A DNA stretch of 64,000 bases, taken from an uncultured virus (IMG/VR IMGVR_UViG_3300045789_000880). Taxonomy: Duplodnaviria > Heunggongvirae > Uroviricota > Caudoviricetes. The stretch lies in IMG/VR virus record IMGVR_UViG_3300045789_000880; one strand, written 5' to 3'. The notes beneath the pieces are model-generated. The model saw only the letters and a list, made by a program, of their open reading frames with translations, was not told the DNA's origin and made no database searches. Shown one piece after another: positions 1,702 through 52,351 of this stretch (position 1 is its first letter; each line of letters starts with the position of its first letter). The translations under genes and the position numbers were made by a program.

Positions 1702-1741
1702 TAGTTTTTAGATTACGCTTTTGCGAAAGCATCATTAAATT

Positions 1742-3515: not shown

Positions 3516-3996
3516 CCTTATGTTGTTTTTTTATTTTGCCCATATTGCGTTCGTTGAAGAGCTGTTCTGATACTTCTTTTACTTTGTAAAGTCTTAAAAC
3601 ACGTTCTTCAGTAATAGCATCAAATTCATCTGTAATTAAGCCCTTAGCAGCACCGTGATTTTTTAAGAGATACACACGAAGTTGATAAACGCGTTCTCCT
3701 TTACTTCCCATTTTTAATGGAAAATCATCATTGGGTTCTGGCAGTACTTCGGGCTTGATGACGATTGCTTTCTTTTCTTTTTCTAAAGGAACTACAGGCT
3801 TCATTTCAACCACAGAAACTTCTTTTTTCTGCGGAATAGGTTTCTCAACTTTTACAGGTTGAGATTCCTCGACGATTGTAAATTCGGCATCCTCAACCGT
3901 TTCTTCTTTATCTCTAAAGAGGACGTAACCCAACAATCCTAATCCCAAAAGCCCACCAGCTATAAGCAATCCTTTTTGCATTGTTTGTTCGCTCAT
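3493..3996 (-). CDS. TM-anchored protein with peptidoglycan-binding-like domain
   Basis: FPLKMGSKGERVYQLRVYL..DEFDAITE resembles PG_binding_1. Confidence 0.65.
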   Translation of the reverse strand: MSEQTMQKGLLIAGGLLGLGLLGYVLFRDKEETVEDAEFTIVEESQPVKVEKPIPQKKEVSVVEMKPVVPLEKEKKAIVIKPEVLPEPNDDFPLKMGSKGERVYQLRVYLLKNHGAAKGLITDEFDAITEERVLRLYKVKEVSEQLFNERNMGKIKKQHKDARKTKH

Positions 3997-4499
3997 TATT
4001 TCCCAAGACTTGACAGCGCTTTTCGCATTCCTGCGATATCGGCTTGAGTGAATACTGTTTTCTTTAATCGCTTTTGTGCAGCTCTCGAGGTTTTAGGACC
4101 GAATTGCCCATCCACACCATTACGTTTTGGTCCCGTTTTGCCTAAATCTTCTTTGTAGATTTTAAGGTAGCGTTGCAATATTTTTACATCAGGATGACGG
4201 CTTCCGTATTTTATGGGATAGCCCGTTTTTGTGATAACTGGTTTCGTACTTGAACTTGATGATGTTGAAGAGCTCGGAATAAAAGGAGGCGTTTGGTAGC
4301 TGGATGAACTACTTGGAACTGTTGTGATTCCTGATGAAGAAGCGCTCGCTAATTCAGCTTCTTTTTTCTCCTTTTTCTTGGTCATAAAATAATACGCGGT
4401 GGCTGCTCCTGCGAGTACCACTATAACACCACCTACCACTAAAAGGTCTTTGTTCTTAGCCATAAATGACGGATTTGTTGCTGTTGATTTCTGTTTCAT
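3996..4499 (-). CDS. TM-anchored protein, Ser-rich linker, peptidoglycan-binding domain
   Basis: YPIKYGSRHPDVKILQRYL..VDGQFGPKTSRA is a PG_binding_1-type signature. Confidence 0.75.
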   Translation of the reverse strand: MKQKSTATNPSFMAKNKDLLVVGGVIVVLAGAATAYYFMTKKKEKKEAELASASSSGITTVPSSSSSYQTPPFIPSSSTSSSSSTKPVITKTGYPIKYGSRHPDVKILQRYLKIYKEDLGKTGPKRNGVDGQFGPKTSRAAQKRLKKTVFTQADIAGMRKALSSLGK

Positions 4500-4508
4500 T
4501 GGTTCGAT

Positions 4509-5030
4509 TTATGATTGATAATTGGGAAGACGTTGCACATAATTTGAGACGTATTCCTTCATTTCGCTTTGGCTCAAAAAGCTATTCAAGTGTTGCCACA
4601 TATCCTTTTTATAGAGTTGATAGTATGCTTTGGAAAGACTGGCGATTTGCGTTTTATCACGCATTTTTTTACCAAAAACATCTTTGATGGCCTCTTCATC
4701 ATCATTAAAAGTGCCTTTCGCATCCTTAATGATATTAGCCAGTTTCTTAGCCGAGGCATCATCCAATACTTGAATACTTTTTGGCGCTACCCATTTCTGA
4801 ACGTCTGTGAGGTAGTTCATATCAAATGGACTGTTCCAGTTCGGCTCTTGCTTGGTGGTTCCTACATTTCCAGTAGTGACTTGCACGCCAGTTCCAATAG
4901 ATGCGGTTGTTGTAGATTGCATTACTTGTTGCTTTGTACGCTTTCGCGAAAGCGTAACAAAAACACCTATCCCGATAACGCCAAGTCCTGCGCCACCTAT
5001 CATCCACCATCCTGTTTTTGAGATTTCCAT
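4509..5030 (-). CDS. TM-anchored annexin-like domain protein
   Basis: AKGTFNDDEEAIKDVF..KTQIASLSKAYYQLYKKDMWQHL resembles an annexin repeat; paralog of 5032..5520. Confidence 0.6.
   Translation of the reverse strand: MEISKTGWWMIGGAGLGVIGIGVFVTLSRKRTKQQVMQSTTTASIGTGVQVTTGNVGTTKQEPNWNSPFDMNYLTDVQKWVAPKSIQVLDDASAKKLANIIKDAKGTFNDDEEAIKDVFGKKMRDKTQIASLSKAYYQLYKKDMWQHLNSFLSQSEMKEYVSNYVQRLPNYQS
4937..4956. repeat. Longest copy of the dispersed palindrome GCTTTCGCGAAAGC
   Basis: TACGCTTTCGCGAAAGCGTA; other perfect 14-mers at 9270, 11110, 26143, 36356, 48550, 61194. Confidence 0.9.
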
Positions 5031-5031
5031 A

Positions 5032-5520
5032 CTATGCTGTTCTGTAATTAGGTAGCGCCTTCACAATGTTGAGCACTATGGTTATTTCTTCCTTGTCAAA
5101 GCGGTCTTTGAGCGTGTCAATCAGGTTTTTTGAATAGGTTTCTTGGTAGGCTTTTGCTACTTGTGACACCTGAACTTTATCTTTCATCTTGCGGAAGACT
5201 CCGTAGACCTGTTCTTCATCATCGCCACCTTGATACCAGCTTCCCCAAGCTTTGTGAATCTGGTCTGCGTAGCGAGAAGCGGTACTTGTTTTTAGTACCA
5301 ATACTTCGCGATTTACTGTTTGCAACACCTTATTCAAAAAATGAATATCAAAAGCATTTTGTGAGGTCAGTCCGCTTGAAATTGGTTGAATCTGCGCTTG
5401 AATGGCAGTCAGTAATTTGCTGGTGCGTAAGTCACGACTGCGCTTTCTCATTGAGAAAAACGTGGTTCCTATAAATAGTGTTCCTACACTGGCGCCTATG
5501 ATTTTATACGTCATACTCAT
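5032..5520 (-). CDS. TM-anchored annexin-like domain protein
   Basis: GGDDEEQVYGVFRKMKDKVQVSQVAKAYQETYSKNLIDTLKDRF. Confidence 0.6.
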   Translation of the reverse strand: MSMTYKIIGASVGTLFIGTTFFSMRKRSRDLRTSKLLTAIQAQIQPISSGLTSQNAFDIHFLNKVLQTVNREVLVLKTSTASRYADQIHKAWGSWYQGGDDEEQVYGVFRKMKDKVQVSQVAKAYQETYSKNLIDTLKDRFDKEEITIVLNIVKALPNYRTA

Positions 5521-5963
5521 TTGCCCAACAGTTTTAAGCCACGACCTGCAGGTGTGAGCATTGCTAAATCTGATACATCTGCATTTTTTGCTGAATTTTT
5601 AAGAAGTACGATAACACCAACTAACACAACCGCAAGTATCACAGGAACACCAATCGATAATACCTTTGTCAAACTTTTCCCCAAACCAAAAATATTTCCA
5701 CCTATTTCAGATAAATCGGCAATGGTTCTGGTTGCCATATTAGAAACATCAAGGTTGTTTTTATTGAGCCATTTGTTAAAGTTGGGACTTGTCGTACAAG
5801 ATGCCGCACCGTTAGATTTCCAAGTAATGAGCCATATCATTTTTGCATTTTCTTGACCTAATTCGCTTTTTAATTTCGTGAAATAGCTTGTCCAGAAGTC
5901 ACAGGGATCGTCTGCTTCTGGAACCAAAAAAATGCGGTTATCTATGTTTACTTGTATCGCCAT
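5517..5963 (-). CDS. Hypothetical membrane protein
   Basis: TM VLSIGVPVILAVVLVGVIVLL; overlaps both neighbours. Confidence 0.65.
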   Translation of the reverse strand: MAIQVNIDNRIFLVPEADDPCDFWTSYFTKLKSELGQENAKMIWLITWKSNGAASCTTSPNFNKWLNKNNLDVSNMATRTIADLSEIGGNIFGLGKSLTKVLSIGVPVILAVVLVGVIVLLKNSAKNADVSDLAMLTPAGRGLKLLGK

Positions 5964-6151
5964 TAATTGCTTCTGAAAATGGTATTACTGTGTTTTTTAC
6001 TATCGGTTTTACTGAAATCGTTTTGTTCTAAAAATTGCTGAAGGCGAGCTTTGAGTTGCGCTTCTTTTCTCAAGGCGGTACGCTTATCATAATTGATATA
6101 CAGCTGCCTTCCCAACCAAAAACCAACGCCTAATGTCAAAATCGTTTTCAT
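5963..6151 (-). CDS. Small hypothetical protein with hydrophobic N-terminus
   Basis: Abuts 6152 and shares a TAATG overlap at 5963. Confidence 0.6.
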   Translation of the reverse strand: MKTILTLGVGFWLGRQLYINYDKRTALRKEAQLKARLQQFLEQNDFSKTDSKKHSNTIFRSN

Positions 6152-6646
6152 CTACTTTCTCTTGTAAATATTATGTTCAGGAATGTCTAATTCTCTGAGC
6201 CATTCTGCTACTTCAAATCCTGGACTATCTTCATCTGCTTTGGCTGGAATTTCTTTAAAACCTGCAATAATGATATCTGGAAAGCGCAGTATATAGAACT
6301 TTACTATCGCTTCAAGTGCCGCTTTTTGTTCATCGGTACGCGTGTCTTTGTCCCAAGCTTCCTTGAGTGTTCTGCCACCTACATAAGCAATGTGTTTGGC
6401 AATTCCCGTGATACCGTTTTGACCGTGAGAAATACCCCATAAATCAGTAGTTGTTGGGCTGTCCTCACTAATAATGATTTGTAAAAGACCATCCTGAAGC
6501 ACGAGGTAGTCGATACCTGGACGATTCCAACCAAAACCGCCTTTATCTTTTGGTAGCGTGTGCTGATTGATAATGATTTCCTTACCGAAGTCTTTAGCTT
6601 CGCTGGTATCTGTACTTTGTATGATGAGATAATCTACTTTTTGCAT
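6152..6646 (-). CDS. T7-lysozyme-like amidase (Amidase_2 fold), apparently catalytically inactive
   Basis: Fold motifs GW..PG, HIAYVGG, DTRTDEQKAAL kept; Zn-ligand positions read Q, F, S. Confidence 0.75.
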   Translation of the reverse strand: MQKVDYLIIQSTDTSEAKDFGKEIIINQHTLPKDKGGFGWNRPGIDYLVLQDGLLQIIISEDSPTTTDLWGISHGQNGITGIAKHIAYVGGRTLKEAWDKDTRTDEQKAALEAIVKFYILRFPDIIIAGFKEIPAKADEDSPGFEVAEWLRELDIPEHNIYKRK

Positions 6647-6656
6647 CTGTTTTGAT

Positions 6657-7094
6657 TTAAAGGTTTATGGCGGATAAGCGTCTAAAGCCCAATAAGCGAT
6701 AGACAGGATATTTCTTGATGTTGACTTGATTGCTCTGATTACCACCCAAGACGTAGATGTATTTTTTGTCTTCGGAATAGCTAATAAAAAGACCTACGTG
6801 ACCTTTCCAACTGGACTTTTTATGACGCCAGAAGATGACCACATCATTAAGTTTTGGTTTGTTGATTTCGGTACCAACTTGCAGCCAAGAACGCGCAGTA
6901 AGTTTATTACTTCGTTCTACTTTCGTCTTGAGCGCTACCCAATTGATAAAGGCAGAACACCAAGCGGTTTCGTCTGTAGAGACCCAAGTATGACCTATTT
7001 CTTTGAAGTAATTGAGAACAATGGGATTATGTTGATAGCCTACAATTTCGGTTACACCGTATTGGCTTAAGGCTATATTAATAAGTTGTGACAT
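6657..7094 (-). CDS. TIGR02594-family (NlpC/P60/CHAP-like) cell-wall peptidase
   Basis: DETAWCSAFINW, ARSW, GHVG, VLGGNQSNQV. Confidence 0.88.
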   Translation of the reverse strand: MSQLINIALSQYGVTEIVGYQHNPIVLNYFKEIGHTWVSTDETAWCSAFINWVALKTKVERSNKLTARSWLQVGTEINKPKLNDVVIFWRHKKSSWKGHVGLFISYSEDKKYIYVLGGNQSNQVNIKKYPVYRLLGFRRLSAINL

Positions 7095-8667
7095 TGGGTG
7101 ACTCGTCTTTAGGGTTATCGAGCCACGATACTGGAATGCCCTTACTCATTTGGACACCAGTAGATATTCTTGATTTTTCGGGAAGCATATTATACATCTC
7201 GATTTGATTGTAATAAATTAAAAAGCTGACTTGCTGTAATGGATTAATTTTAAAACACCAGGTCACGTGTCCATCTATTAAGTTTCCATCAAAGTCAAAT
7301 ACTTCTGAAACATTTGCAAAGTTTTGAGGACTCTGACTATTACTCAACGAGATGGTTTTACAGATTTCGGTACCAGTGACGGACTTTTCAGTAATCTGTA
7401 GTGCATTGATTCTGTCTTCTCCAGAAGCGACCAGCTTGACGTGACCAACCATCGCAGGATTATGCTGGAAGTCTTCACGGTCTTCATAATATTCTTCGTT
7501 TACTGTTACGGTAGGACCAGATTGTAATCCCGAAATGCTAACCGTATCATCTGCAGAGTTGCTCACGCCTATAATTTCTTCCTTAGAACTAATAGCTAAC
7601 CCAAGTCCAAAACTTTCAGTTTTAATTGTATCTATTATTTGATGCTTTGGACTAATTCTACAAAACGTTTGATCGCCTCGATTCCCCACGTACATTAATC
7701 CATTATGCGGATTATAAGCAATAGCTACAGGATCTTTACCTACGCTTAATTTAGTGATGGCTCCAAATCTTACGGTGTCTAAAACCGAAACAGAATTTGA
7801 ATTATTCAGTACCATATACATATTCTTGGTCACTGGATGGAATTGAAACGAAACAATATCTGCCACTACAGAACCTACGCTTCCTTTTTGATTGCCTTGA
7901 AGATCATACACGTTGATGGCGCCATCCACAATATTGTGAATGTATAAATCACCTGAATCTGTATCAACTCCAAGTGTTCTGGCTCCAGGTACTAAAGGCA
8001 AATTATTTACTCTACGATTGATGCAAATTTTAGAGATTGTTCCCGAAACTAAATTTGCTGTATAATAACATTGATCCACTGGATTATAAACGATATCTAC
8101 TGGACGATTCCCAACAGATTCTCTTCGTAAAATTGTAAAGTCTTGATTTATAAAAACGACTTCATTTGAGACTGAGCAAGCTATCGCAACTACTCCGTAT
8201 TCAACACTATTAGTAGATGTATTTACAGCTAAAGCAACTGGACTAACACTGCCTGGAACGCTAAAAATTGTTGAATTAGAAGCTCTTCTTTCTCCAACTC
8301 CATAACCACTTCCAGCTTGAGAAGTACCTTGTGATAAGTCAATAGTCGTAACAAGTTCTCCTGAAGGGTTAACCACCGAGACAGAATCTCCTAATTGATT
8401 CACTACGTAAAATAAGTCTGTAACAAGATTATAGACCAGCTCTTGTGGTTGCTTATCTACGACTACACTTTTTGTGCCTTCTTCATTTATAAACATAGGA
8501 TCAGTAAGCGGTGTGCAAGCAATTGCACCCCAAAGACATACTTTTCTTATGTCCTTAGTATGGTTTGTAACCGTTACTTGTACAACATCATTCTCTTTTT
8601 GAAGTTGCGCGTAGAAACGTTTTAAACTTGCCTGCTTGTCTAACCAAGTATATGTTGCTCTACTCAT
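7078..8667 (-). CDS. YVTN/YncE-type beta-propeller inserted in a domain homologous to 12033..12944 (candidate spike/penton)
   Basis: VGNRPVDIVYNP and VGKDPVAIAYNP blades; flanking segments align with the candidate capsid (shared SPQNF). Confidence 0.75.
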   Translation of the reverse strand: MSRATYTWLDKQASLKRFYAQLQKENDVVQVTVTNHTKDIRKVCLWGAIACTPLTDPMFINEEGTKSVVVDKQPQELVYNLVTDLFYVVNQLGDSVSVVNPSGELVTTIDLSQGTSQAGSGYGVGERRASNSTIFSVPGSVSPVALAVNTSTNSVEYGVVAIACSVSNEVVFINQDFTILRRESVGNRPVDIVYNPVDQCYYTANLVSGTISKICINRRVNNLPLVPGARTLGVDTDSGDLYIHNIVDGAINVYDLQGNQKGSVGSVVADIVSFQFHPVTKNMYMVLNNSNSVSVLDTVRFGAITKLSVGKDPVAIAYNPHNGLMYVGNRGDQTFCRISPKHQIIDTIKTESFGLGLAISSKEEIIGVSNSADDTVSISGLQSGPTVTVNEEYYEDREDFQHNPAMVGHVKLVASGEDRINALQITEKSVTGTEICKTISLSNSQSPQNFANVSEVFDFDGNLIDGHVTWCFKINPLQQVSFLIYYNQIEMYNMLPEKSRISTGVQMSKGIPVSWLDNPKDESPNVTTY

Positions 8668-9418
8668 TGGCTCTATAATTTTCTATAAAATTGATAACAT
8701 CTTTGGTACGCTCAATTTGGGATGCACCAACCATTTCTGGGTTTTTCCCGAACACTTTTGTTACTGCATACACCGCCTCAATGGTTGGGAAACCATAATC
8801 GAGGTATTGTTTCATTCCGCATAAATCTGCGGTAGTTTGACTGCGTGTATTTAAGAACCAATGACAGCCTTCGTGCGCTAAAATTGCAACGCGAATAGGA
8901 ATGGTGTACGACTTAAACAAACGTTGCGATATTTGAACTCTCGGCATTTTGCGATGCGTTCTCGCTGGTGTAATAAGCTCTGCACCAAAAGGATCAGTTA
9001 TTTTATCTAAATATTGAAACAGAAATTCGTTGTCGGTACTTTCATAAAAACCAGGAGGTACGTAACCTGCTTTTTGCGCAAACTGAATCGCAAATTCTAA
9101 AAAACGATGTTGGTCATCAGTCGCCCAAACTGCCAGCGCTGGCATCTTTTCTATTTTAACATTGACGATTTCAAATGCATCATCATCTACTTCGTTTTTA
9201 TCAAATACTTCCATTTCCAGTACTTCTGGAGAAACTGGCAGTGCGATCACAAATTCTCGTTTTGAGTTCGCTTTCGCGAAAGCGGCTTTTCTTCTAAAAT
9301 AATAGCTATTAGGATGCTCAGGATCATACACACGAATTCCCAACTCAAAAGGCATCAAGGCCTTGATGGTCAGTTTAATCTGAAAGCGTTCTCTATTTGA
9401 TGGAATGGTTGTTATCAC
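8660..9418 (-). CDS. Zincin-like metallopeptidase with beta-rich N-terminal domain
   Basis: ILAHEGCH (HEXXH) followed by QTTAD. Confidence 0.65.
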   Translation of the reverse strand: MITTIPSNRERFQIKLTIKALMPFELGIRVYDPEHPNSYYFRRKAAFAKANSKREFVIALPVSPEVLEMEVFDKNEVDDDAFEIVNVKIEKMPALAVWATDDQHRFLEFAIQFAQKAGYVPPGFYESTDNEFLFQYLDKITDPFGAELITPARTHRKMPRVQISQRLFKSYTIPIRVAILAHEGCHWFLNTRSQTTADLCGMKQYLDYGFPTIEAVYAVTKVFGKNPEMVGASQIERTKDVINFIENYRANE

Positions 9419-9888
9419 TGAGGATATTGTTGGTGTTGCTTATTTTTAGAACTACTCATTACTGCAAGTCCAATGACTCCGACAACTACGACGCCACCTA
9501 AAACATAAACGATGGTAGGAATCCCTTTTTTCTCTTCTTCTGGAACTTCTGGAGCTCCTAAGTCTACAGAGAAGTCCGAAGGCAATTCTGTGTTAGCGCC
9601 ATATCCATCTAAAGGTTTTGGTGTAGTAAACGAATCGATTACTTGACCTATCGCTGTAGCGCCACCAGCTTCTTTATAAATCTGACCTACATCTTTAAAG
9701 AACTTCGTGCGCTTTGCTTTGCGCTCTATTCGTTTTGGAGCAGATCTTCTTATCGTTCTTCTGGCGATACGTTTTGCTTTTCGCTTGGCACGTCTTGCTT
9801 TACGTTTCTTTTTATTTCCAAAAAAGTCATCATAATCGTCATCTTGTAGATGTCGACTTAAAATGCTTTCTGTTTCTCCTAAAATCAT
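9415..9888 (-). CDS. Acidic leader, Arg/Lys-rich tract, C-terminal TM (core-like protein)
   Basis: DDDYDDFFG then KKKRKARRAKRKAKRIARR; TM IVYVLGGVVVVGVIGLAVM. Confidence 0.7.
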   Translation of the reverse strand: MILGETESILSRHLQDDDYDDFFGNKKKRKARRAKRKAKRIARRTIRRSAPKRIERKAKRTKFFKDVGQIYKEAGGATAIGQVIDSFTTPKPLDGYGANTELPSDFSVDLGAPEVPEEEKKGIPTIVYVLGGVVVVGVIGLAVMSSSKNKQHQQYPQ

Positions 9889-9897
9889 AAATGGGAA

Positions 9898-10125
9898 TTA
9901 GATAATTTGCATTATTCTTAAAGTCGAGGCTCCAGGATTGTAGGTAATTTTCTTATAACCTTTACCCACAAAAGGATAGCCCTTTGCTTCGCCAGGAAAT
10001 AAAACCACTCCATTAACCAAAGCTTTTCCTTCTCCCACGTTTTTAATTGAGGCGCTTAAAAAACCATCACTGATTTCTCCTGAGACCGTTGTGTCAATTT
10101 CATTTACTTGTGCTAATATGTCCAT
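9898..10125 (-). CDS. Small beta-strand protein (75 aa; start re-assigned to ATG at 10125)
   Basis: MDILAQVNEI..SASIKNVGEGKALVNGVVLFPGEAKG; ATG preferred over the longer near-cognate start. Confidence 0.6.
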   Translation of the reverse strand: MDILAQVNEIDTTVSGEISDGFLSASIKNVGEGKALVNGVVLFPGEAKGYPFVGKGYKKITYNPGASTLRIMQII

Positions 10126-10660
10126 TTTGTAATTTTTTGTTTTGAATGAATTTATAAATCCCAAACCCTGTTGCACCTACAACTCCCACGACAGCAATTA
10201 CTTTAACCACTTTGCTCACCTTACTGTCAGATTTTATTGCCTTTTTACTGGCTTCTACTTGTGCAGTTTGAAGTTGTCTGACTTCGGCTTTTGCAATAGC
10301 AGATAATGTTGTTTTGACAACCGCTGGATTTGATTTTTTAATCAAGTGACTTATGGGTGTCTTTGTTTTGACTGGTGGTTTTTTAGTCTTGATGACCGCT
10401 TTTTTTGGTTGTACCGTTTTCTTACGAATCACAGGAATACTCTTCACTCGAATAGGCGGTAATTTCATAGGACGACCACGAACGACTCTGGGGCGAATTC
10501 GTACAGGTGGTCTGCTTAATTTTGGTTTAGAAGACCGTCTGCGTTTTAATAGTTTTCGAGTACGACGTTTCTTTCTGCGACGACGACGTATGCCTCCAAA
10601 ATTATCGTAGTCTTCGTCCTGATAAACATCATAATCAGTAAGTGCATAGGTATTTGTCAT
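10100..10660 (-). CDS. Acidic leader, very Arg/Lys-rich, C-terminal TM (core-like protein)
   Basis: QDEDYDNFGG then IRRRRRKKRRTRK; TM VIAVVGVVGATGFGIY. Confidence 0.7.
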   Translation of the reverse strand: MTNTYALTDYDVYQDEDYDNFGGIRRRRRKKRRTRKLLKRRRSSKPKLSRPPVRIRPRVVRGRPMKLPPIRVKSIPVIRKKTVQPKKAVIKTKKPPVKTKTPISHLIKKSNPAVVKTTLSAIAKAEVRQLQTAQVEASKKAIKSDSKVSKVVKVIAVVGVVGATGFGIYKFIQNKKLQNGHISTSK

Positions 10661-10661
10661 T

Positions 10662-11300
10662 TTATCTCGGCATTGGCATCGGTGGCTGTCCGTAAGGCAT
10701 TGGTGGACGTCCCGATTTCATTAATACTACCGCTCCGATACCTAAAACGACCACACCGCCGCCTATCATCAGCATCATATTGGTTTTCTTTTTGGCTGCT
10801 TCGGCTTTCTTCTTTTCTTCCTCACGACGACGCGCTTCCTCTTGTCTGCGTCTTTCTTCTGCCTCACGACGTTTGCGTTCTTGCTCTTCTCGCATACGCT
10901 GCATACGCATTTCCATATCTCTTTTGGCCGCAGCAGCTTGGGCAGATGCTCTTGCTTGTGCAGCTGCTTGAGCTGCGCCACTATTAGATGAACCTCCACG
11001 TTTCTTTTTCTTAAAGAGTCCACCTATAATGCCTACAGCACCTTTGGCAATCGCTCCCCAAAATTGGTCGTTCTCTCGTGATGAAAAGCGAGCGATTAAA
11101 TTTTCTAACGCTTTCGCGAAAGCGTAATCTCCATCTTTTAATAGGTCAACCACTTCATTAACGAGTTGCTCTTTTGATGGTTTACCTTGAAAGAACACAT
11201 TGCTTTTAGCAAGTAATTCTTGAACAGGTTTTGGATAATTGAGAACCAAATAGGTAAGGTTGTCAATCGCCTGATTGTATTGTGATTGTTTATTTGACAT
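10662..11300 (-). CDS. Structural candidate: helical N-domain, NDQFWG motif, charged coil, C-terminal TM
   Basis: N-domain resembles that of 11290..11931; TM MLMIGGGVVVLGIGAVVLM. Confidence 0.7.
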   Translation of the reverse strand: MSNKQSQYNQAIDNLTYLVLNYPKPVQELLAKSNVFFQGKPSKEQLVNEVVDLLKDGDYAFAKALENLIARFSSRENDQFWGAIAKGAVGIIGGLFKKKKRGGSSNSGAAQAAAQARASAQAAAAKRDMEMRMQRMREEQERKRREAEERRRQEEARRREEEKKKAEAAKKKTNMMLMIGGGVVVLGIGAVVLMKSGRPPMPYGQPPMPMPR

Positions 11301-11931
11301 TGCTAAAATTGAATTTTAAACCGTGCCCAACTAAAGCGCCTGCGATGAATACCACTCCAAAAAGTAGGAGTTCATCTTTAGTCACGCTGAAGGTTTTATG
11401 CGGTTGTGGTTTAGGTTCTTCTTCTTTTTTCTTTGCTTCTTTACGAATGCGCACTTCGTTCCAAACCATTTGTACTTCCTGCGCAAGATTCTTGTCATCT
11501 GCTTGAGCGTTAGATCGTTTTACGATGGTCTGGTAATAGCGTTCTAAGTCCTTATCTGAATAACTCTCAAACTGGTTAAGAAAGCTATCTTCATCTCCTG
11601 TCCCTGAATAATTAGAATGTCCACAAGCTTTACAGAAATTACTTTCTGTATTGTAAGAGTCGTTGCTGCAAGCACCACAAAAGTTGTCTTCTTTGGGTTG
11701 ACTGAGCTTTAATATAGCATCCTTATCGGGATGTAATTGTATGAGCTCTTTAATGACTTTACGCCCTTTTTTGCGAGCAAGTTCTTTTATAGCTTCAGCT
11801 AGGTGTTTAGGTTCTTCTGGCGCTTCAAAACCATACTCAAATAACAATTTTGCAACATCATCTGTATTGTGATAGACGATATAATCGATTCTATTTTGAG
11901 CTAGTGAAGGTGTTTGTTTTGAGTTTTTCAT
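11290..11931 (-). CDS. Structural candidate: helical N-domain, CxxC..CxxC, C-terminal TM
   Basis: EDNFCGAC..FCKAC; TM LLLFGVVFIAGALVG. Confidence 0.7.
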   Translation of the reverse strand: MKNSKQTPSLAQNRIDYIVYHNTDDVAKLLFEYGFEAPEEPKHLAEAIKELARKKGRKVIKELIQLHPDKDAILKLSQPKEDNFCGACSNDSYNTESNFCKACGHSNYSGTGDEDSFLNQFESYSDKDLERYYQTIVKRSNAQADDKNLAQEVQMVWNEVRIRKEAKKKEEEPKPQPHKTFSVTKDELLLFGVVFIAGALVGHGLKFNFSNVK

Positions 11932-11947
11932 CTTGTTTTCAATAAGA

Positions 11948-11989
11948 ACAGCCAGAGTGTATGGTTTAGGGGAAACCGACTCTGGCTGT
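11948..11989 (-). terminator. Stem-loop downstream of the candidate capsid gene
   Basis: ACAGCCAGAGT (11948-11958) pairs with ACTCTGGCTGT (11979-11989), inner GGTTT/AAACC; weak U-tract on minus strand. Confidence 0.6.
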
Positions 11990-12032
11990 CTGGTATTAGG
12001 TACAAAGTCTGGACGAGTTCCTTATTACAGGA

Positions 12033-12944
12033 CTATCGTCTACGACGTCTTACCAATCGAGAAACTGGACGTCTCGCCACCGGTTTTCTGACTAGTCTAC
12101 GACGTTTTACAACTCTACGAGTAGGACGTCTCACCACTCTACGTCTAGGACGTACACCTAATGCTGTTGGTCTTTTTCTACGGATTAAATCCAACTGTGG
12201 AAGCCCAGTGGTACGTGGTGCTCTTGAAAGCTCTGCCACGTTGGTACCTTTTAAAAGGTTACCCAGATTGGCTCTCGCTTTAATCGTAAATGTGAATACT
12301 GCCGTTACACCATCTTCTACAGATACACGCAGGGAATCCTGACCTGTAACATCCATCTCGAAGTTATCATCGTCGATGAGTTGTTGGGTAAAGTTTTGAG
12401 GCGAAGTAGCATTACGCGGTTGATACACTCTGGTTGTTTTAGACCCAGAAGCGGTTCTACGGTCAATACGTAACACATTATCAAATTGCAGTGCGTTACT
12501 CACAGAGTATTTCATTCCCGCAATCTTGAACGGATTTGATTTGCTCTCCTCACGTACTTCTTTATGGCTGGACTCTTCAATCTCAACGGTTAGTCCGTTA
12601 GGTTGAGCAGCTTCCGCATTACCACCAAAAATAACTGCCTCTGCACGAGCACCAGACTTGTTAGTCACGACAACCGTAAGGGTTCTATCGTTAGGATCTA
12701 TCTTACCGATGCTCGATTTCGTATAATCATCATAGGCATCATCGTCGTACTCGCCTTCATCAGCGTAGTCGTCGTAATCATCATATTCATCTTCGTACTC
12801 TTCGTCATAGCCGTCTTCTAAACCTTCAAATCCAGGATCGAAGTCGTCTTCTTCATCGTCGTACATCTCGTCGTTATCGTAGTCGTCATACTGATCTTCA
12901 GCAGCTTCCTCGTAACGCATTAATTCGTCGTTATAATCTTTCAT
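12033..12944 (-). CDS. Candidate major capsid/shell protein: acidic N-tail, beta-rich core, Arg-rich C-tail
   Basis: About 75 D/E/Y-rich aa, about 150 aa of alternating beta pattern, about 50 aa R/V/P tail; near the head of the structural operon; fold is inference. Confidence 0.55.
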   Translation of the reverse strand: MKDYNDELMRYEEAAEDQYDDYDNDEMYDDEEDDFDPGFEGLEDGYDEEYEDEYDDYDDYADEGEYDDDAYDDYTKSSIGKIDPNDRTLTVVVTNKSGARAEAVIFGGNAEAAQPNGLTVEIEESSHKEVREESKSNPFKIAGMKYSVSNALQFDNVLRIDRRTASGSKTTRVYQPRNATSPQNFTQQLIDDDNFEMDVTGQDSLRVSVEDGVTAVFTFTIKARANLGNLLKGTNVAELSRAPRTTGLPQLDLIRRKRPTALGVRPRRRVVRRPTRRVVKRRRLVRKPVARRPVSRLVRRRRR

Positions 12945-13017
12945 TTGTTTTCATTGTTTGCCTGTTCAAAAAACAGGATGATACTTTTGTTTTGGTGTCC
13001 AAAAGTGTCTCTAAACA

Positions 13018-13188
13018 CTATTTTTTAGTTGGACTTGCAGTTGCTGGTTTCTTTGCTTCAGCTAATTTTTTAGCTTTCATTTTTTGCATCATCGGAGCAA
13101 TTAAAAATGTTCCTAATGCGATTCCAGCGACGCCTGCTCCCACACAATACAGAATTGGTGTCCAGGCGATGTCGTTCTTGTTTGCCAT
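13018..13188 (-). CDS. 56-aa single-TM protein with basic tail (not in ORF track)
   Basis: Hand translation MANKNDIAWTPILYCVGAGVAGIALGTFLIAPMMQKMKAKKLAEAKKPATASPTKK. Confidence 0.75.
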   Translation of the reverse strand: MANKNDIAWTPILYCVGAGVAGIALGTFLIAPMMQKMKAKKLAEAKKPATASPTKK

Positions 13189-13317: not shown

Positions 13318-13356
13318 GTTAAAGGCTCGATATTCTTAGAATATCGAGCCTTTAAC
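13318..13356 (-). terminator. Intrinsic terminator after the SIR2-like gene
   Basis: 19-bp inverted repeat GTTAAAGGCTCGATATTCT/AGAATATCGAGCCTTTAAC followed by TTTTAAT on the minus strand. Confidence 0.8.
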
Positions 13357-13372: not shown

Positions 13373-14500
13373 CTAAATCTTAATTTCTGGTTCCTTTGGA
13401 TTGATGAATTCATCTGGCACAAAAAACTCAGATACAGATTTGTCTTGTACTAAAGATTTGTAATTGATGAAATTTTTAATTTTTTCAAAATCATCCATAG
13501 GGTCTTGATAATAAATGTAGAGAGCCGTATTAGATTTAACAGCATTTAAAATTTGACTATCAATCTTTCTATTGTATTGCGGAAAAGAATAACCAATAAC
13601 GACGAGAATATCTGTTTTATTGGCAATATTCAAAATTTCTGGAGATAGCTCCTTTTCCCAAGAAAATTTAATAGAACTATAATCGTGGTAAGAATTTGAA
13701 CGAACTTTAAATTGGGATAAGTTATCGAACAAGTCTTTCAGATACCTATAAAAGTTAGATTTCAGTACATTTCTTCCAGTTGGATAATACTTTTTATCAT
13801 ACTTGAAGTATCCGTGATGGCCGTTAAGATGATAAAGATTTAGTTCCTCACTATTTTCCTCTAAAAACTTTAATTTAGAATTGACATCATCTAAACACTT
13901 CAAGTTTAAATCTTGATACAAATTGTTAAATGCTAATTGGGTTTGCAAGTCATAATTCCAACTCAATATATTAATATTGGGATTTAAAGAAACTTCACCA
14001 AATTGATCAGATTCAGTAATCATATTTAGCCATTTGATGTATCTAGTATCTATTGGTTGTTTTTTATGAAAGAACTCATTCTCACTTTTTCTAAAAGGCA
14101 TATCATTTTGATAAAACTGCCAAATATCTAGGTAAATACTCAATGTCTTTTTTAATCGATCCAACTCAATAGTATTGTTTCTTTTGAAAAGGATATTTGC
14201 GTAGCTGTCTATAGTATCATTACTTTGAGCTTTTTGAGAGAAGTGTTTTAAATCCGAAATGATTTGATTTAAATATTCAGTTTCTTCAGATGTGAAGCCA
14301 GTGTAATTTGAGTTTTTTAATAATTCTGATGAAAAAATACTAGTTGGATTTTCAATAGCTTGTTTAATGCTATCGGCAACTAACTCCATAGATTTACCTT
14401 GTTCTGACCAGATTGGGACTGAATTATAGCTTGCACCAGCACCTAAAAGATAAGTAACTTTTAAATCCTTTTTTAAATTATATTTTGAGTATTCTATCAT
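13373..14500 (-). CDS. SIR2-like/AbiH-like protein (putative defence NADase)
   Basis: YLLGAGAS, ILSWNYD, LYHLNG, VVIGYSF motifs. Confidence 0.75.
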   Translation of the reverse strand: MIEYSKYNLKKDLKVTYLLGAGASYNSVPIWSEQGKSMELVADSIKQAIENPTSIFSSELLKNSNYTGFTSEETEYLNQIISDLKHFSQKAQSNDTIDSYANILFKRNNTIELDRLKKTLSIYLDIWQFYQNDMPFRKSENEFFHKKQPIDTRYIKWLNMITESDQFGEVSLNPNINILSWNYDLQTQLAFNNLYQDLNLKCLDDVNSKLKFLEENSEELNLYHLNGHHGYFKYDKKYYPTGRNVLKSNFYRYLKDLFDNLSQFKVRSNSYHDYSSIKFSWEKELSPEILNIANKTDILVVIGYSFPQYNRKIDSQILNAVKSNTALYIYYQDPMDDFEKIKNFINYKSLVQDKSVSEFFVPDEFINPKEPEIKI

Positions 14501-14518
14501 ATTTTTTAATCAATATTA

Positions 14519-15997
14519 CTAGTGAATTATCCTCAACACACCCTGATTGCTCTCTTTAAAAGCCTCACTTTGACGCAAAACTTCTTCCATTGCAACCATA
14601 TCATCGCCAAGCAATGTATCACTAAAAGCTTGCGCTCTGTTGAGCATTCGTATGTAAACTGATGGGTCTTGATTTCTGGTTAGCCTGCGTAATCCTCCTA
14701 AATAATCTTCACGATAAACTGTTGGGATAATTATTTTGGTTTGTGATTCAGTAGATAGTTCAGCATTCATCATTACACGTGCAATACGTCCATTACCATC
14801 CAAAAAAGGATGGACTTCACTAATCACAAACATTATGTAAGCTGCTTTTGAAAAAGGATGTGTTAGCGCTTGATAGTAGTCAAAACTTTTATAAAGTGTT
14901 CCTGTAACTAATTCCATTTCGACAAAAGAGGTGTCTCCAGCTCTGTTGTTTTTATCTTTGAACTTACCTGGCTTTTTATCTTCTCGAGCACTCAATAATA
15001 TTTGATGCCTGTATTGAAGTATTTCTACCAATTCTTCTTTAGTGCTTGGAACGATTTTCATTTCGCGTGGGTTAGAAACAATTTGATACGTTCCTAATAC
15101 ATCGTGAGAGTCTTCATTACGTGACGGTAGTGGTTTTTGAGTTTCGATGACACGTTTTGCCTCTTCAATTTCAAAGACAGTACCTTCAATGTAATTGGAA
15201 AAGTAACTTTCATAAAAGGCAAAGTTTCTATAAGCCGCAGTTGTGGTATTTTTTTCTTTTCGATGTTGAAACTCTTGCTGTTTTAAAGCGGTAAACAACG
15301 ATTCAAAAAGTTGAATTCTAGCCGGATCATAAGGCACTCCAAATGCTCTTGCTGATGCTACTGGCGATTTTAATATACTCGATGGTTTTGTAGTGAGTAA
15401 TGCGCTTATGATTTTATTTAGCTTGTTAAACTCTTTAGTCAAGCCCACTTCTTTGGCAATCTTTCTAGCTTTGTCCCTTACCGCATTTAATTCGTCCTCT
15501 CCATTAACACGGATAATTTGTTCCAGCTTTTCTTCAATTTCTGGATAGGTTAATGTTTTAGAATCGGGACCAGGCTTTCGAGAAGATTCCATATTTTCCA
15601 GCAAAGCACGTTCTCTTTGAGATAGGTATAATTCACCAGAAAAGATGGTGTCGCCTTTTATAGGTTTATTGCCAGCCAATAAACGAATTGTTATTCCTGG
15701 TAATTGAGCTTTTCTTGTGTAGGTGTACGTTAAGAATATTTGTCCTGTGGCTGTTGGTGCAAACTCAAACGCAGAACGATGGCTTAATAGTGCACCTGGA
15801 TATAAATGCCCAAGAATATGAAATAGATTGCGTCTTGTTATGTCTTCTGGCGTATCCTCAAGATTAGAAGTGTAAACTCTGTTTGCCAGCTTACGTATCG
15901 TTCCCTCTTTTTCTAACTTCGAGATTTGTTGCGATGTCGCAGAATCGGAAGAGCTAAAAATGATCTCTTGTAGATGAATTGGTATATTTTTTTCCAT
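14519..15997 (-). CDS. Fic-domain protein with N-terminal AbiEi/wHTH-like region
   Basis: Canonical HPFLDGNGRIAR; FSNYIEG. Confidence 0.92.
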   Translation of the reverse strand: MEKNIPIHLQEIIFSSSDSATSQQISKLEKEGTIRKLANRVYTSNLEDTPEDITRRNLFHILGHLYPGALLSHRSAFEFAPTATGQIFLTYTYTRKAQLPGITIRLLAGNKPIKGDTIFSGELYLSQRERALLENMESSRKPGPDSKTLTYPEIEEKLEQIIRVNGEDELNAVRDKARKIAKEVGLTKEFNKLNKIISALLTTKPSSILKSPVASARAFGVPYDPARIQLFESLFTALKQQEFQHRKEKNTTTAAYRNFAFYESYFSNYIEGTVFEIEEAKRVIETQKPLPSRNEDSHDVLGTYQIVSNPREMKIVPSTKEELVEILQYRHQILLSAREDKKPGKFKDKNNRAGDTSFVEMELVTGTLYKSFDYYQALTHPFSKAAYIMFVISEVHPFLDGNGRIARVMMNAELSTESQTKIIIPTVYREDYLGGLRRLTRNQDPSVYIRMLNRAQAFSDTLLGDDMVAMEEVLRQSEAFKESNQGVLRIIH

Positions 15998-16023: not shown

Positions 16024-16170
16024 TAAAATAATTTCCACTAAAACGTATTTTTAGTAAAATAATTTCTGTTAATAGAGATTAAATAATTTCTACTAAAATG
16101 TGTTCAACCTGTGAATCACTAAAATTTATTCCACTAAAATGCTATTTCTTTAAAATATATTCTACTATAA
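16024..16170. repeat. Five imperfect ~20-bp direct repeats, consensus TAAAATAATTTCYACTAAAA
   Basis: Copies starting at about 16024, 16055, 16080, 16120, 16151, upstream of the Fic gene. Confidence 0.65.
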
Positions 16171-17094
16171 AGGACTGTTCAACCCATCCTCGTGATAACG
16201 TAACTTATCTGAAATCAATTTTACAATAGCCTCGTTCTTAGTTTTGTAAATGTTATTTCCGTCAAAATCCTGTTCATTTAAAAGCATCTTTACTTTTCTG
16301 CTTTCTTCTTGGTCGATGAACTTTTTGCAAGCTCTGATGAATGCAGCACGACTGCAACCTTTGATGCGTTGCTCTCGCATATTTACATACACGAAAAAAC
16401 TTTTCTGGATTTTATATTCAAGCTCGGTAATCTTACCCATCGCAAAAGCATTAGAACATAGTTCATATTGCTCATCTACAATAAGCTGTCCGATACGTAC
16501 CATTTGATACTTAGGAATACGCTCCCGATAGCGCGTCACATCATCTACTTGGTGGTGCAATCGCAACCACGTACAGTTTTGCCATTCGGATGTTGTGATT
16601 TTTGCAACCGACTGGTGTGTGAGTACAATGTCAATCCCTTTATGACGCACTGTACAAAGTGCACCAATCATAGACTGTCCTTTTGCACCTGTCATATAAT
16701 GGTCGATATCGTCTAAGACTACGAGACCATTTTTATAGTGTTTCATAATCTTGGTAATGACTTCTTTCTTTTCGTCATTATCCATAGGCGAACCATCTGC
16801 ATTAAAAGGACGAATACGTCTTGAAGAGACTTTGGTAAGTGCCTTCAAATGATTTGGGCTTACGGTTCTGAATTGTGGATAATCATCATCATTAGTGTCA
16901 AAAGCCAAAACCTTACGACCTTTCTTTCCCATCACTAAATGATCCATCATATAGTGTTTGATCTCTTGTTTGTTGCGATAGGTTTTACCAACACCAGTTT
17001 CGCCACAAACGAGCATAATCATTGGTTGACGCTCTAAATCTTCTTTCTTATAGCTTATAGGCTTACGACCACGATTAGATGTAGTTCCTGACAT
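16165..17094 (-). CDS. FtsK/HerA-superfamily (A32/P9-like) genome-packaging ATPase
   Basis: Walker A GETGVGKT, Walker B LVVLDD, VRHKG Arg finger followed by IVLTHQ. Confidence 0.75.
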   Translation of the reverse strand: MSGTTSNRGRKPISYKKEDLERQPMIMLVCGETGVGKTYRNKQEIKHYMMDHLVMGKKGRKVLAFDTNDDDYPQFRTVSPNHLKALTKVSSRRIRPFNADGSPMDNDEKKEVITKIMKHYKNGLVVLDDIDHYMTGAKGQSMIGALCTVRHKGIDIVLTHQSVAKITTSEWQNCTWLRLHHQVDDVTRYRERIPKYQMVRIGQLIVDEQYELCSNAFAMGKITELEYKIQKSFFVYVNMREQRIKGCSRAAFIRACKKFIDQEESRKVKMLLNEQDFDGNNIYKTKNEAIVKLISDKLRYHEDGLNSPL

Positions 17095-18068
17095 TACGAA
17101 TTGCTTTGTGGTTCTTCAGCGACATCTATGATGGGAATGTCATCATCGACTTCTTCGACTTCTATATCTTGAATGGTAGGCTCAGGTTTAGTTACTTTAT
17201 CTTTAAGTGGGTTTTGTTCTGGTTCCGATTTGGCGAAAGCGTAATTAGTACTATCTGTAGCGTCCATATTTTCATCCTCCTCAATATCCTCTATTTCAGT
17301 CTCACCTTTTTCCTGACGAACGATGTCGAGAATGCGATTTTCAAGCAGACTATTTTCGGCACGTACTTCCATAACGACTTGTGCCTTTTTCATCAAGATG
17401 GAAATGACTGCACCCATTAATTGCTGTTCTGGCGTGAGTTTTTTAGCCTTCTTACGAAGTACTTGAGCAAGTAATGGTCTAAGTAAAGCTTGATCTTCTT
17501 TGTCAAGCTTTATACGCTCTACATTCTTATCATTCTGCTGATCTACAACTTGAATGATTTCTTCAAACTCATAGAACTCTTGGTGCTTTCTGATTTTTAC
17601 GAAATAACCACCGCCAACTGCAAGCACATTGTTAGACATTCCCAATATCGCATCGGCTGCTTGATTTGCTTGCGCGAGCGGTACTTCAAAATCTTGGTCG
17701 GTTACGGTTTCATCAGCTTCAGTATCAAATCCATTTCCGTTGATTTCTTGTTCGGGAGCATCAAGTGGTTCTTGGGCTTTTTCCTTTTCGACTTTAGCTT
17801 CAACCTTAGTTCTAAAATCGGTTTGAGTATTTCCGCTACGTCCAGGTTCTAGTTCATCAAGGGTTTTATGCTCTTGTTCTGGTTTCCAAACGTTCCAGCT
17901 TTTTTGTTTTTCTTCATCGGTTTCAACAGGACGTTCGCCACCTATGTCTTTTTCAATTACAGGTTGGTTAAGCGGACTACTATCTTCGTTTTGAAGTTGT
18001 TCAAAATTGATTTCTTCTGGAGTTGCGGTAAGGGCATCTTGTACCTCTTGAGCGATTTTGTCTTGCAT
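17094..18068 (-). CDS. Acidic hypothetical protein coupled to the ATPase
   Basis: TAATG overlap at 17094; acidic termini, helical core. Confidence 0.7.
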   Translation of the reverse strand: MQDKIAQEVQDALTATPEEINFEQLQNEDSSPLNQPVIEKDIGGERPVETDEEKQKSWNVWKPEQEHKTLDELEPGRSGNTQTDFRTKVEAKVEKEKAQEPLDAPEQEINGNGFDTEADETVTDQDFEVPLAQANQAADAILGMSNNVLAVGGGYFVKIRKHQEFYEFEEIIQVVDQQNDKNVERIKLDKEDQALLRPLLAQVLRKKAKKLTPEQQLMGAVISILMKKAQVVMEVRAENSLLENRILDIVRQEKGETEIEDIEEDENMDATDSTNYAFAKSEPEQNPLKDKVTKPEPTIQDIEVEEVDDDIPIIDVAEEPQSNS

Positions 18069-18668: not shown

Positions 18669-20489
18669 ATGTATTTACAGAATATAAAACTTTGGAATTT
18701 TAGAAAATATGGGAATTCCAATCCATTTGATTTACAACAACCAAGTCTTGATTTGAATTTTTCCAAAGGAGTAAACGTCCTAATAGGTCAAAATGATTCA
18801 GGTAAAACTGCTATAATTGATGCTATTAAATTAGTTCTAAAAACTCATAGTTACGATTGGCTTAAAATTGTAAATGAAGATTTTTATTTAGATTCAGACA
18901 GACTCAGGATAGAACTCATTTTTGATGATTTAGATCCAGAAGAGGCAAAACATTTTACAGAATGGCTGGGATGGAATAAAGAGGCAGGTAAAGAGCCAAA
19001 GTGTTTTTTACGTCTAATTTTTGATGTGAGAAGAAACATTGCGGACAACACGATATTTCCATCAGATGTAAAAGCAGGAGTTGATCCTGTTGGATATCAG
19101 TTAACTGCTGAGGCAAGAGAGTTTATAAAAACGACCTACCTAAAACCTCTTAGAAATGCAAAAGCAGAGCTCGTGCCAAGAAAAAATTCTAGACTAGCTC
19201 AAATTCTACAGGAACACGAAGCATTTAGAGGGAGAAATAAAGATCATTCATTAGTTGGTCTTTTTAACGATTTTAACGTTTCAGTTGAAAAGTACTTTTT
19301 AGGTATTGCAAATAATGACGTCCCTTTACCACCGACTGAACAAAAAGGGAAAGAATTAAAGGACGAAATAGATAGTTATATAAGATCCTTTTATGATAAG
19401 ACAAAGGAATCAGCATTTGGAGTTAAGGATAACAATCTTAAAAATATTTTAGAGAAGTTAGAATTATCTATCAAAGATGAAATCAATCCAGGTTTAGGTA
19501 CTTTAAATCGTTTATTTATGGCATCTGAGTTATTACACTTAAATAAGAAAAACTGGACTGGTATAAGATTAGGTTTGATTGAAGAATTAGAAGCTCACTT
19601 GCATCCGCAAGCACAAATGCAAATCATTGAAGGCCTTCAAAAAGAGAAAAGCATCCAGCTTATTTTAACAACTCACAGTCCAAATTTAGGCTCTAAAATA
19701 AAACTTGAAAACCTAATTTTATGTTCAAATGATAGCGCATTCCCTATGGGCAAAGAATATACTAAGCTCAAAGATGAAGATTATAAGTTTCTTGAAAGAT
19801 TTCTGGATACCACCAAAGCAAATTTATTCTTTGCAAAAGGTATAATTATGGTTGAAGGATGGTCTGAAGAAATAATATTGCCAACCATAGCCCAGAGGTT
19901 GAAAGAACAAAATGTAATTAAAAAGAACTTGACTGAGGCAGGTGTTTCAATAGTCAATGTTGCGAGCACAGCTTTTCAGAGATATGCCAAAATATACTTA
20001 CGCAAAGAACCTGCATCAAAAAAGATTGGAATCCCAGTAGCTGTTATTACAGATGTTGATGTAAGAGCTTATGAAGAAGAAATAAAAGCTGGGGCAGATG
20101 GCAAAAATTATAAATCATATTCAAAAAAGGAAGAAGCAACTGTTATTGCGGAATCTATGAAAGAAGTAGCAAAATTACAGACCGAATACAATAAGGATAA
20201 CGTAAAATGTTTTGTTGCTAAAGACTGGACATTAGAATATGCATTATTAAAATCAACTTCAATCGGAGTGCTTTTTAGTGAAGCATTAATACAGATACAT
20301 CCACAAGTCCACCAAGATACTATTGAAGAAGACCTTAGTAAAAAGCTGATAAACAAATCTCTTCATAAGACCGAACTAGCTTATATATTAGCTGAAAAAA
20401 TAGAAAAAAATATTGTTTTACCAATCCAAGAAGACGATGTGAGCATTTCGTACCTAATCGACGCCATAAAATATGTCTGTAATGATTAG
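18669..20489 (+). CDS. gajA: OLD-family ATP-dependent nuclease (GajA-like)
   Basis: GQNDSGKT, IEELEAHLHP, TTHS, TOPRIM VEGWSE and TDVD. Confidence 0.85.
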   Translation: MYLQNIKLWNFRKYGNSNPFDLQQPSLDLNFSKGVNVLIGQNDSGKTAIIDAIKLVLKTHSYDWLKIVNEDFYLDSDRLRIELIFDDLDPEEAKHFTEWLGWNKEAGKEPKCFLRLIFDVRRNIADNTIFPSDVKAGVDPVGYQLTAEAREFIKTTYLKPLRNAKAELVPRKNSRLAQILQEHEAFRGRNKDHSLVGLFNDFNVSVEKYFLGIANNDVPLPPTEQKGKELKDEIDSYIRSFYDKTKESAFGVKDNNLKNILEKLELSIKDEINPGLGTLNRLFMASELLHLNKKNWTGIRLGLIEELEAHLHPQAQMQIIEGLQKEKSIQLILTTHSPNLGSKIKLENLILCSNDSAFPMGKEYTKLKDEDYKFLERFLDTTKANLFFAKGIIMVEGWSEEIILPTIAQRLKEQNVIKKNLTEAGVSIVNVASTAFQRYAKIYLRKEPASKKIGIPVAVITDVDVRAYEEEIKAGADGKNYKSYSKKEEATVIAESMKEVAKLQTEYNKDNVKCFVAKDWTLEYALLKSTSIGVLFSEALIQIHPQVHQDTIEEDLSKKLINKSLHKTELAYILAEKIEKNIVLPIQEDDVSISYLIDAIKYVCND

Positions 20490-52349: not shown

Positions 52350-52351
52350 TC

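Follow-up and report, generated by a model that had tools for sequence, protein, structure and literature searches.

What does the open reading frame at positions 12033–12944 encode, and why should its product carry a strongly acidic arm at one end and an arginine-rich arm at the other? The window, the whole 64,000-nucleotide stretch analysed here, is the opening 64 kb of a record 72.5 kb long. The product is most likely the shell protein of a tailless virus, so far undescribed, that is integrated in marine bacteria; a short tag repeated in its acidic arm probably marks the site at which a virus-encoded protease cuts. This tag, shared with neighbouring proteins, together with an adjacent protease-like gene, is a more telling feature than the bipolar charge.

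The gene lies on the minus strand, starts with ATG and encodes 303 residues, with a predicted jelly-roll core between two charged arms. The N-arm (aa 1–75; 12720–12944) includes a short N-terminal helix (aa 4–18) and holds 40 D/E, 13 Y and 2 K/R, for a net charge of −38. The core and its C-terminal helical extension, as delimited by the model and structural alignments, span aa 76–254 (12183–12719), with residues 76–230 carrying a net charge of −1. The C-arm (aa 255–303; 12033–12182 including the stop codon) contains 26 K/R, 23 of them arginine, and no D/E, has a net charge of +26 and ends in RRRRR. These counts bear out the charge-bipolar tails described in the earlier note, and both arms are kept, at net charges of −15 or lower (N) and +10 or higher (C), in 118 of 120 homologues, the closest among those listed.

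Homologues of this protein account for 350 of 591 candidates. Across 77 loci in named Bacteroidota genomes, with one record titled Akkermansia, the core is 66–100% identical, and its complete identity in six loci titled as five genera implies recent transfer. The gene is second in conservation within its block (median 81% versus 88% for the ATPase); codon bias is weak, and by a codon index the gene ranks first in just 19 of 68 loci. Among 401 sampled genomes of the phylum of genome G002, two have a match, one of them G002 itself. The wider family comprises 181 representatives at E ≤ 0.001 (50% clustering), with members mostly 200–300 aa long. Bipolar arms occur in 5 of the 134 representatives with a full core (150 listed, 16 dropped for partial core coverage), and the median N-arm of the family is about 40 aa and neutral. 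The long bipolar arms are thus an elaboration of the query lineage, and the fold needs none. Among variants, P0227 (336 aa) has two core-like stretches and looks like a tandem jelly-roll duplication, and the family representative P0261 (603 aa) has a long insertion after the first strands.

The family has no match in PHROGs, NCBIfam or Pfam (the last also tried with 150 family members), so elements of this kind would escape marker-based prophage searches. The protein itself has no match among PDB sequences, including by profile search, or among the plasmids searched, and its best match in cultured phages has E 0.4. An Atlas search returned unnamed clusters only (0.88–0.90), and scans of IMG/VR by exact short patterns gave no confirmed relative, which does not establish absence.

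The charges of the two arms vary together. Among 70 distinct complete proteins, the N-arm ranges from −18 to −53 and the C-arm from +12 to +37 (Spearman −0.83), and on a tree of 62 loci the contrasts in arm charge correlate with r −0.77, with opposite sign in 34 of 39 non-zero contrasts. Whole-protein net charge remains within a narrow band, −2 to −17. In distant representatives, arm charges are uncorrelated (rho 0.004, n 129). The co-variation fits with mutual screening of the arms, and joint arm lengthening could be part of its cause. The partner of the arginine-rich arm could be DNA, or anionic lipid if a membrane separates shell and genome.

An AlphaFold2 model of the protein, built on a 150-sequence alignment, features nine main strands between residues 88 and 225, a helix after the third strand and short C-terminal helices. 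Its ten-residue-block pLDDT is 89–98 over residues 81–250, and both arms are modelled at low confidence (pLDDT mostly 48–74). In VIA-align, residues ~79–230 are covered by jelly-roll proteins throughout, with a best Z of 6.1 and none of 48,161 chains reaching Z 8. Foldseek returned no PDB match at E ≤ 0.001, its top rows being plant-virus capsids and nucleoplasmins, and three unnamed entries below E 0.001 from a viral library. Jelly-roll matches throughout, all of them weak, point to one domain of jelly-roll type that lies close to none of the solved proteins, and the modelled core is almost certainly a single jelly roll. The earlier note had argued for a single rather than a double jelly roll, and this reading is supported; a double jelly roll is rejected on size (one ~150-residue domain) and by the model. 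The structural search proposed in that note recovered a jelly-roll-type sandwich, but no solved capsid stands out. The fold by itself reveals no function.

The surrounding genes form a minus-strand backbone of 66.3 kb, from 719 to 67018, in the order lysis, small membrane proteins, structural block, ATPase, MoxR-like AAA, Strawberry-notch helicase, methylase and HTH protein. Contigs of four runs place the left edge of the element near 723. The lysis and small membrane block (719–7094, minus strand) contains M15 peptidase, spanin-like, amidase, CHAP/lysozyme-type and peptidoglycan-binding genes, and the early backbone (51399–63610, minus strand) contains the MoxR-like AAA, the Strawberry-notch/DarA_C helicase, the methylase, a glycosyltransferase and an HTH replication-type protein. 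Past the window end (64126–67018 of the contig, minus strand) lie repressor-like and recombinase-like ORFs; we assign the labels repressor, recombinase and replication initiator from motifs, presumptively. In the structural and lysis block (719–13188), 12 of the 22 ORFs contain a hydrophobic 19-mer.

The 77 loci share one gene order near the capsid candidate: the adjacent membrane gene is present in 75, the HExxH gene described below in 69, the capsid-core paralog in 65 and the ATPase, within 10 kb, in 45, with many of the misses attributable to short contigs or cargo insertions. Cultured strains have multiple intact copies, three in Kordia algicida OT-1 and four in Dokdonia ponticola, and Patiriisocius marinus KCTC 32322 is a further cultured carrier. 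Two of the Kordia copies lie in tandem, one of ~51 kb and one of 64 kb or more; their backbones are ~97% identical and their cargo differs. Element sizes of about 51 to 66 kb are an awkward fit to one rigid shell. The same module, HExxH ORF included, occurs in a ~21-kb element of genome G044, and a 135-kb metagenome contig (L095) has the same gene order with a capsid core 36% identical. L095 carries four further capsid-core paralogues (at 2149–4081, 16339–17970 and 18991–19560, with a long one at the spike position).

The record is classified in Caudoviricetes, yet the hallmarks of that class are not found in the element: HK97 capsid, portal and tail families are absent from Pfam matches to 60 ORFs and PHROGs matches to 36 + 24 ORFs. 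Stray tailed-phage labels comprise a tail-lysozyme domain, a partial terminase match on the ATPase and a coiled-coil scaffold match on a cargo gene. A conjugative element was considered and rejected, as Pfam revealed neither a relaxase nor a type IV secretion family in the 60 ORFs. No attachment-site repeats were found between the contig ends.

Upstream of the capsid candidate, a 309-aa P-loop protein of A32/FtsK-HerA type (16165–17094, minus strand) is a candidate packaging motor. Its match to Pfam Pox_A32 is weak (E 4.9e-5, 23.4 bits versus a cut-off of 22.8), a match to Zot (E 3.3e-6) lies above the cut-off, and Walker A/B and an RH..HQ motif are present, the latter taken by us as a mark of this ATPase family. 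Its best PHROG match is partial and labelled terminase large subunit, and PDB searches gave generic P-loop matches and no packaging ATPase.

Toward the other end of the structural block, a 529-aa protein (7078–8667, minus strand) is paralogous to the capsid core, its sequence being interrupted after the second strand by a beta-propeller. The core aligns with the last ~120 residues (hhalign 97.4%, E 1.3e-11), an N-terminal piece weakly matches the first two core strands, and the propeller (E 3.5e-51) fills the middle. A binding domain inserted in a jelly roll suits a role at the vertex, and the paralog is likely the vertex spike. A profile search of the whole contig found no other capsid-core paralog, a search that a very divergent second copy could escape. 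With the ATPase upstream, the propeller-inserted paralog, the membrane block and no competing candidate, gene context supports the earlier note's assignment of the 12033–12944 product as a candidate major capsid protein, and it is most likely the sole one. The rank of the gene in conservation and the RNA hairpin conserved behind it also speak for this role.

A clue to the acidic arm comes from a four-residue motif that it repeats. The N-arm contains [YFWE]-D-x-[FY] seven times, the core-proximal copy being YDDY at aa 71–74 (12723–12734), a predicted processing site. Capsid homologues average 5.6 copies, versus 1.2 after shuffling in 20-residue blocks, with up to nine copies per N-arm, and 69 of 72 have a [YF]-D-x-[YF] copy at a constant spacing ahead of the core. 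The tag recurs in a series of membrane-anchored proteins encoded next to the capsid candidate, all on the minus strand. The product of 11290–11931, membrane-anchored by hydropathy and with a Cys cluster, has EDNF and EDSF mid-protein, at aa 81 and 114; in its family, the tag flanks the Cys cluster and occurs in 81% of 73 homologues versus 9% when block-shuffled. In the product of 10662–11300, a tag-like NDQF site, EDxF in homologues, directly precedes an amphipathic Gly-rich segment (hydrophobic moment 0.38) and then a coiled coil, with the tag in 52% of 61 homologues versus 4% shuffled. The very basic protein of 10100–10660 (net +42) has YDNF before an Arg/Lys tract, with the tag in 91% of 22 homologues versus 5% shuffled, and the basic protein of 9415–9888 has YDDF before an Arg/Lys tract, with the tag in 95% of 58 versus 6%. 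For the propeller-inserted paralog, the figures are 45% versus 13%. The small soluble beta-rich ORF at 9898–10176 (minus strand), present in 58 of 77 loci within the membrane block, is without the tag; its product is possibly a turret or cement protein.

The same test gave 0–8% in 16 other families. Within the window, 11 copies fall in four of the six block ORFs versus 1.44 expected, and one falls in the 32 other backbone ORFs versus 2.64 expected. The tag patterns were derived from the tested sequences and homologues are not independent, each family counting as about one observation. A partly independent test comes from a second pattern, [FY]-x-N-[AFYM]-x?-G, which occurs in 46 of 129 distant capsid N-arms versus 3.0 expected and was fixed before loci L093–L095 were examined; it was found in the L095 capsid and four downstream ORFs. 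A narrower [FY]-x-N-A, chosen after inspection of L095, has eight copies spread over 6 of the 12 block ORFs (0.84 expected) and two in 17 others (1.39 expected), and lies at the equivalent place, ahead of an amphipathic segment. The two versions do not cross: the query type is absent from the L095 block and the distant type from the window. In G044, YDDF precedes the core of the capsid homologue, but no clear tag is seen in the neighbouring proteins. That the tag is a real shared signal is highly probable, and its concerted shift across non-homologous proteins of one element argues that it is read by an element-encoded factor.

A candidate for this factor adjoins the tagged block. The protein encoded at 8660–9418 (minus strand) resembles zinc metalloproteases of the HExxH type, with the motif kept in 68 of 69 homologues and H182, E183 and H186 invariant in 52 aligned sequences. 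SprT-like matches to the family lie below the cut-off (E 0.018–0.12; 26 of 52 members), as do metallopeptidase-type look-alikes in the Atlas (0.78–0.86), and a PDB search gave no match. An orthologue is present in L095 (99.8%). On the strength of its motif, this protein is a candidate maturation protease, and it is reasonably probable that the tag is its cut site. The earlier note had suggested that the acidic tail acts as a built-in chaperone or scaffold. The co-varying arm charges lend this indirect support, but the arm is not merely acidic: it repeats a tag common to other particle proteins, which suggests a removable pro-arm.

The best overall explanation, to which we give slightly better than even credence, is that the protein is the sole capsid protein, made as a precursor from which the arm is removed at the tag by the HExxH protease. 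The virus would be temperate, tailless and probably membrane-containing, with dsDNA, in marine Bacteroidota. Its jelly-roll core would form the shell, and the propeller-inserted paralog would occupy the vertices or form receptor spikes. In the precursor, the acidic arm would screen the arginine-rich arm and prevent early sticking to DNA or membrane. During maturation, the metalloprotease would cleave at the [YFE]-D-x-[FY] tag and free the acidic arm; a cut after residue ~74 would shift the net charge from −12 to +26 and the mass from 34.8 to about 25.7 kDa. The same step may unmask the basic or amphipathic segments of the four neighbouring membrane proteins.

Alternatively, the capsid protein may retain its arm as a permanent internal scaffold or charge balance, with the tag as a docking or sorting signal that recruits particle proteins. 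Here the reader of the tag might be the ATPase, an acidic membrane protein encoded at 17094–18068, or the HExxH protein as an inactive protease serving as adaptor. All evidence for the capsid role applies equally to such a retained arm; tags placed mid-protein and up to nine copies per arm suit multivalent binding, and a whole-protein net charge that stays between −2 and −17 also fits. However, the tag repeatedly lies between an acidic leader and a segment that is basic or amphipathic, which is the layout of a pro-piece, and an intact HExxH gene lies beside the block in the near loci, in G044 and in L095. We therefore consider a retained arm possible but rather unlikely.

Nucleoplasmins pair a jelly roll with acidic and basic tracts, and the best structural neighbours of the core are nucleoplasmin cores (Z 5.2–6.1; best 1xe0_F, Z 6.1, rmsd 3.7, 101 aligned) together with a 124-residue PR772 virion chain (Z 5.9). 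The protein might then lie outside the shell, as a nucleoplasmin- or penton-type pentameric jelly roll: a chaperone of basic proteins with a DNA-binding Arg tail, or a minor vertex or core protein. Yet these Z values are typical of a common arrangement, and the nucleoplasmin/nucleophosmin core has ~100 residues versus ~150 here, where the context is that of a bacterial virus. The charged tracts are missing in most family members, and no member of 150 matches the nucleoplasmin family in Pfam. Pfam, PHROGs and profile searches found no other capsid candidate in the element, and the vertex role already fits the propeller-inserted paralog. We regard this alternative as improbable. That there is no icosahedral virion at all, with the jelly roll polymerising as a fibre or coating a pleomorphic, DNA-carrying membrane vesicle, is very improbable: Ena endospore-appendage subunits score near the top of the structural search (Z 5.8–5.9; at 5.9, rmsd 4.1, 109 aligned), element size varies and over half of the structural and lysis ORFs (12/22) have a hydrophobic segment, but the structural similarity is weak, jelly-roll capsids are reported to go with A32/FtsK-like packaging ATPases in the accessible part of one study (PMC4158269), and lysis genes suit particle release.

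A precursor matured at a shared tag invites comparison with known systems. The Halopanivirales/Singelaviria (P23-77, IN93, SH1, HHIV-2) combine single jelly-roll capsids, an FtsK-like ATPase, an internal membrane and temperate members, and the accessible text of two sources mentions no maturation protease for them (PMC8812541; PMC6356626). The likeness to our element lies in one beta-sandwich (aa ~81–230), at the level of general fold, and in the A32/FtsK-HerA-type ATPase, with its weak match and partial terminase label. For an icosahedral virion with an internal membrane and upright capsomers, as theirs, the hydrophobic segments in 12 of 22 block ORFs are an indirect sign. These viruses have two capsid proteins, whereas one plain copy and a propeller-inserted paralog were found here, in an element of 51–66 kb. 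Halopanivirales capsid chains are absent among the structural matches listed, which still leaves room for kinship; those listed include a phiCjT23 chain at Z 5.4 and an SPV1 chain (6oj0_Z; Z 4.5, rmsd 3.5, 109 residues) at rank 45, within background. The element would work like a Singelaviria-type virus, but with capsid matches at background level and no second plain capsid gene found by profile search of the contig, we do not file it among the Singelaviria.

A printed precedent for one jelly-roll gene with an ATPase is the integrated ArcVen-P3 provirus of Archaeoglobus veneficus, with a Dehalococcoides relative, in which one VP16-like gene lies downstream of an FtsK-like ATPase and no second capsid gene was detected, according to the available portion of the report (PMC4158269). 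Compared by description, ArcVen-P3 is 9.5 kb, VP16-like and from an archaeal or Chloroflexi host, and that portion mentions no protease, tag or charged arms (PMC4158269). Sulfolobus polyhedral virus 1 (Portogloboviridae) has one single jelly-roll capsid protein, proposed as an ancestral state (PMC8812541); its host is archaeal and it is without a packaging ATPase, in contrast to the element here with its ATPase at 16165–17094. SSIP-1 resembles our element in being large (43.8 kb), tailless and membrane-containing and in having many small structural proteins with membrane anchors (PMC6260650, in part), but it has two capsid types (PMC6356626, in part). It was rejected as a direct relative, with gp44, gp45 and gp46 at hhalign ≤ 0.1% and a best HMM E of 0.57 among 24 ORFs. 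By eye, several ORFs in the structural region of SSIP-1 (L092, 21296–39777) have G-[ML]-G or RENP-like motifs before distinct segments.

In eukaryotic jelly-roll viruses, several particle proteins share a motif at which a single viral protease cuts them. If the cleavage reading holds, the element would work alike, with the difference that those viruses use a double jelly roll and a Ulp1-like cysteine protease, whereas here there is one ~150-residue domain, unlike the Varidnaviria double jelly roll, and a candidate HExxH metalloprotease in a bacterial element. In adenovirus, polintoviruses, virophages and large DNA viruses, the protease is part of the morphogenetic module, and the Ulp1-like enzyme, gained in the eukaryotic host, is described as the key difference from tectiviruses in the accessible text (PMC4405056). 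One study gives 7–18 kb for prokaryotic double jelly-roll genomes and nowhere uses the word 'protease' (PMC5894146); the 4.6-kb elements of another, as far as its text was available, are unrelated (bioRxiv 2025.08.03.668216), and 'Shyamaviridae' occurs by name only in the text available. No published description of the family, tag or protease was found in the accessible literature, which included PMC12934983 and bioRxiv 2025.02.15.638363 and has most subscription papers and supplements outside it.

Taken jointly, these features permit a broader reading that we hold tentatively, as possible and somewhat doubtful: a large new lineage of bacterial viruses, whose capsid shares no ancestry with those of Halopanivirales, with a shell of one single jelly-roll protein, a spike derived from the same gene plus a propeller, and an independent, adenovirus-style maturation by zinc metalloprotease. 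Within this reading, the protease would recognise a code of four residues, peculiar to the lineage, both in the capsid arm and in several core proteins anchored in the membrane, and all of these would be switched from acidic to basic or membrane-active. If true, it would make this a new lineage of capsids and establish protease maturation in a tailless virus of prokaryotes, one that could be induced from cultured marine Flavobacteriaceae. In the accessible parts of reviews, the maturation protease is treated as a gain that jelly-roll viruses made in eukaryotes alone (PMC4405056), and the two-protein Singelaviria are placed after a state with a single capsid protein (PMC8812541). Both views are touched by a widespread bacterial element that combines one jelly-roll capsid gene with a packaging ATPase and a processing code of its own.

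Such elements also carry large defence cargo between genera. In the window, this cargo sits on the plus strand, inserted into the backbone. A complete Gabija pair (GajA, GajB) lies at 18669–22500, and the same site in other loci holds different OLD/UvrD pairs or unrelated cargo. A 24-kb block at 27313–51418 begins with two tandem genes of no known family (27313–30647), ~70% identical, and continues with HSP70-like, kinase-AAA fusion, TerB-like and type I restriction-modification genes, two GmrSD-domain genes and a SLATT_5 gene. Between the ATPase and the capsid gene, a variable slot (13373–15997, minus strand) bordered by an inverted repeat (13318–13356) contains a 375-aa ORF without a family match and a Fic-domain gene. 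In the tandem copies (G001:C1:1500001-1640000; L083–L089), the first has type II secretion-like genes and long repeat proteins, labelled by reading, and the second a polymerase-V-like gene.

Within the backbone, the Strawberry-notch helicase, which has a weak DarA_C match, lies beside the large methylase (52565–59983, minus strand), and both are kept in the Kordia copies; we take the pair to resemble the head-packaged anti-restriction proteins of phage P1. The DUF7192 gene (26031–27044) and the MoxR-like AAA gene (51399–52349), both on the minus strand, are adjacent in related elements and split here by cargo; by analogy, they are possibly an assembly chaperone pair. Directly 3′ of the capsid gene lies a stable RNA hairpin (11933–12005, minus strand; z −4.9). 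A hairpin with z < −2 follows the capsid gene in 63 of 69 distinct loci, the same test behind four control genes giving 2/22, 5/20, 0/22 and 0/21, and it is possibly an attenuator or an mRNA stabiliser.
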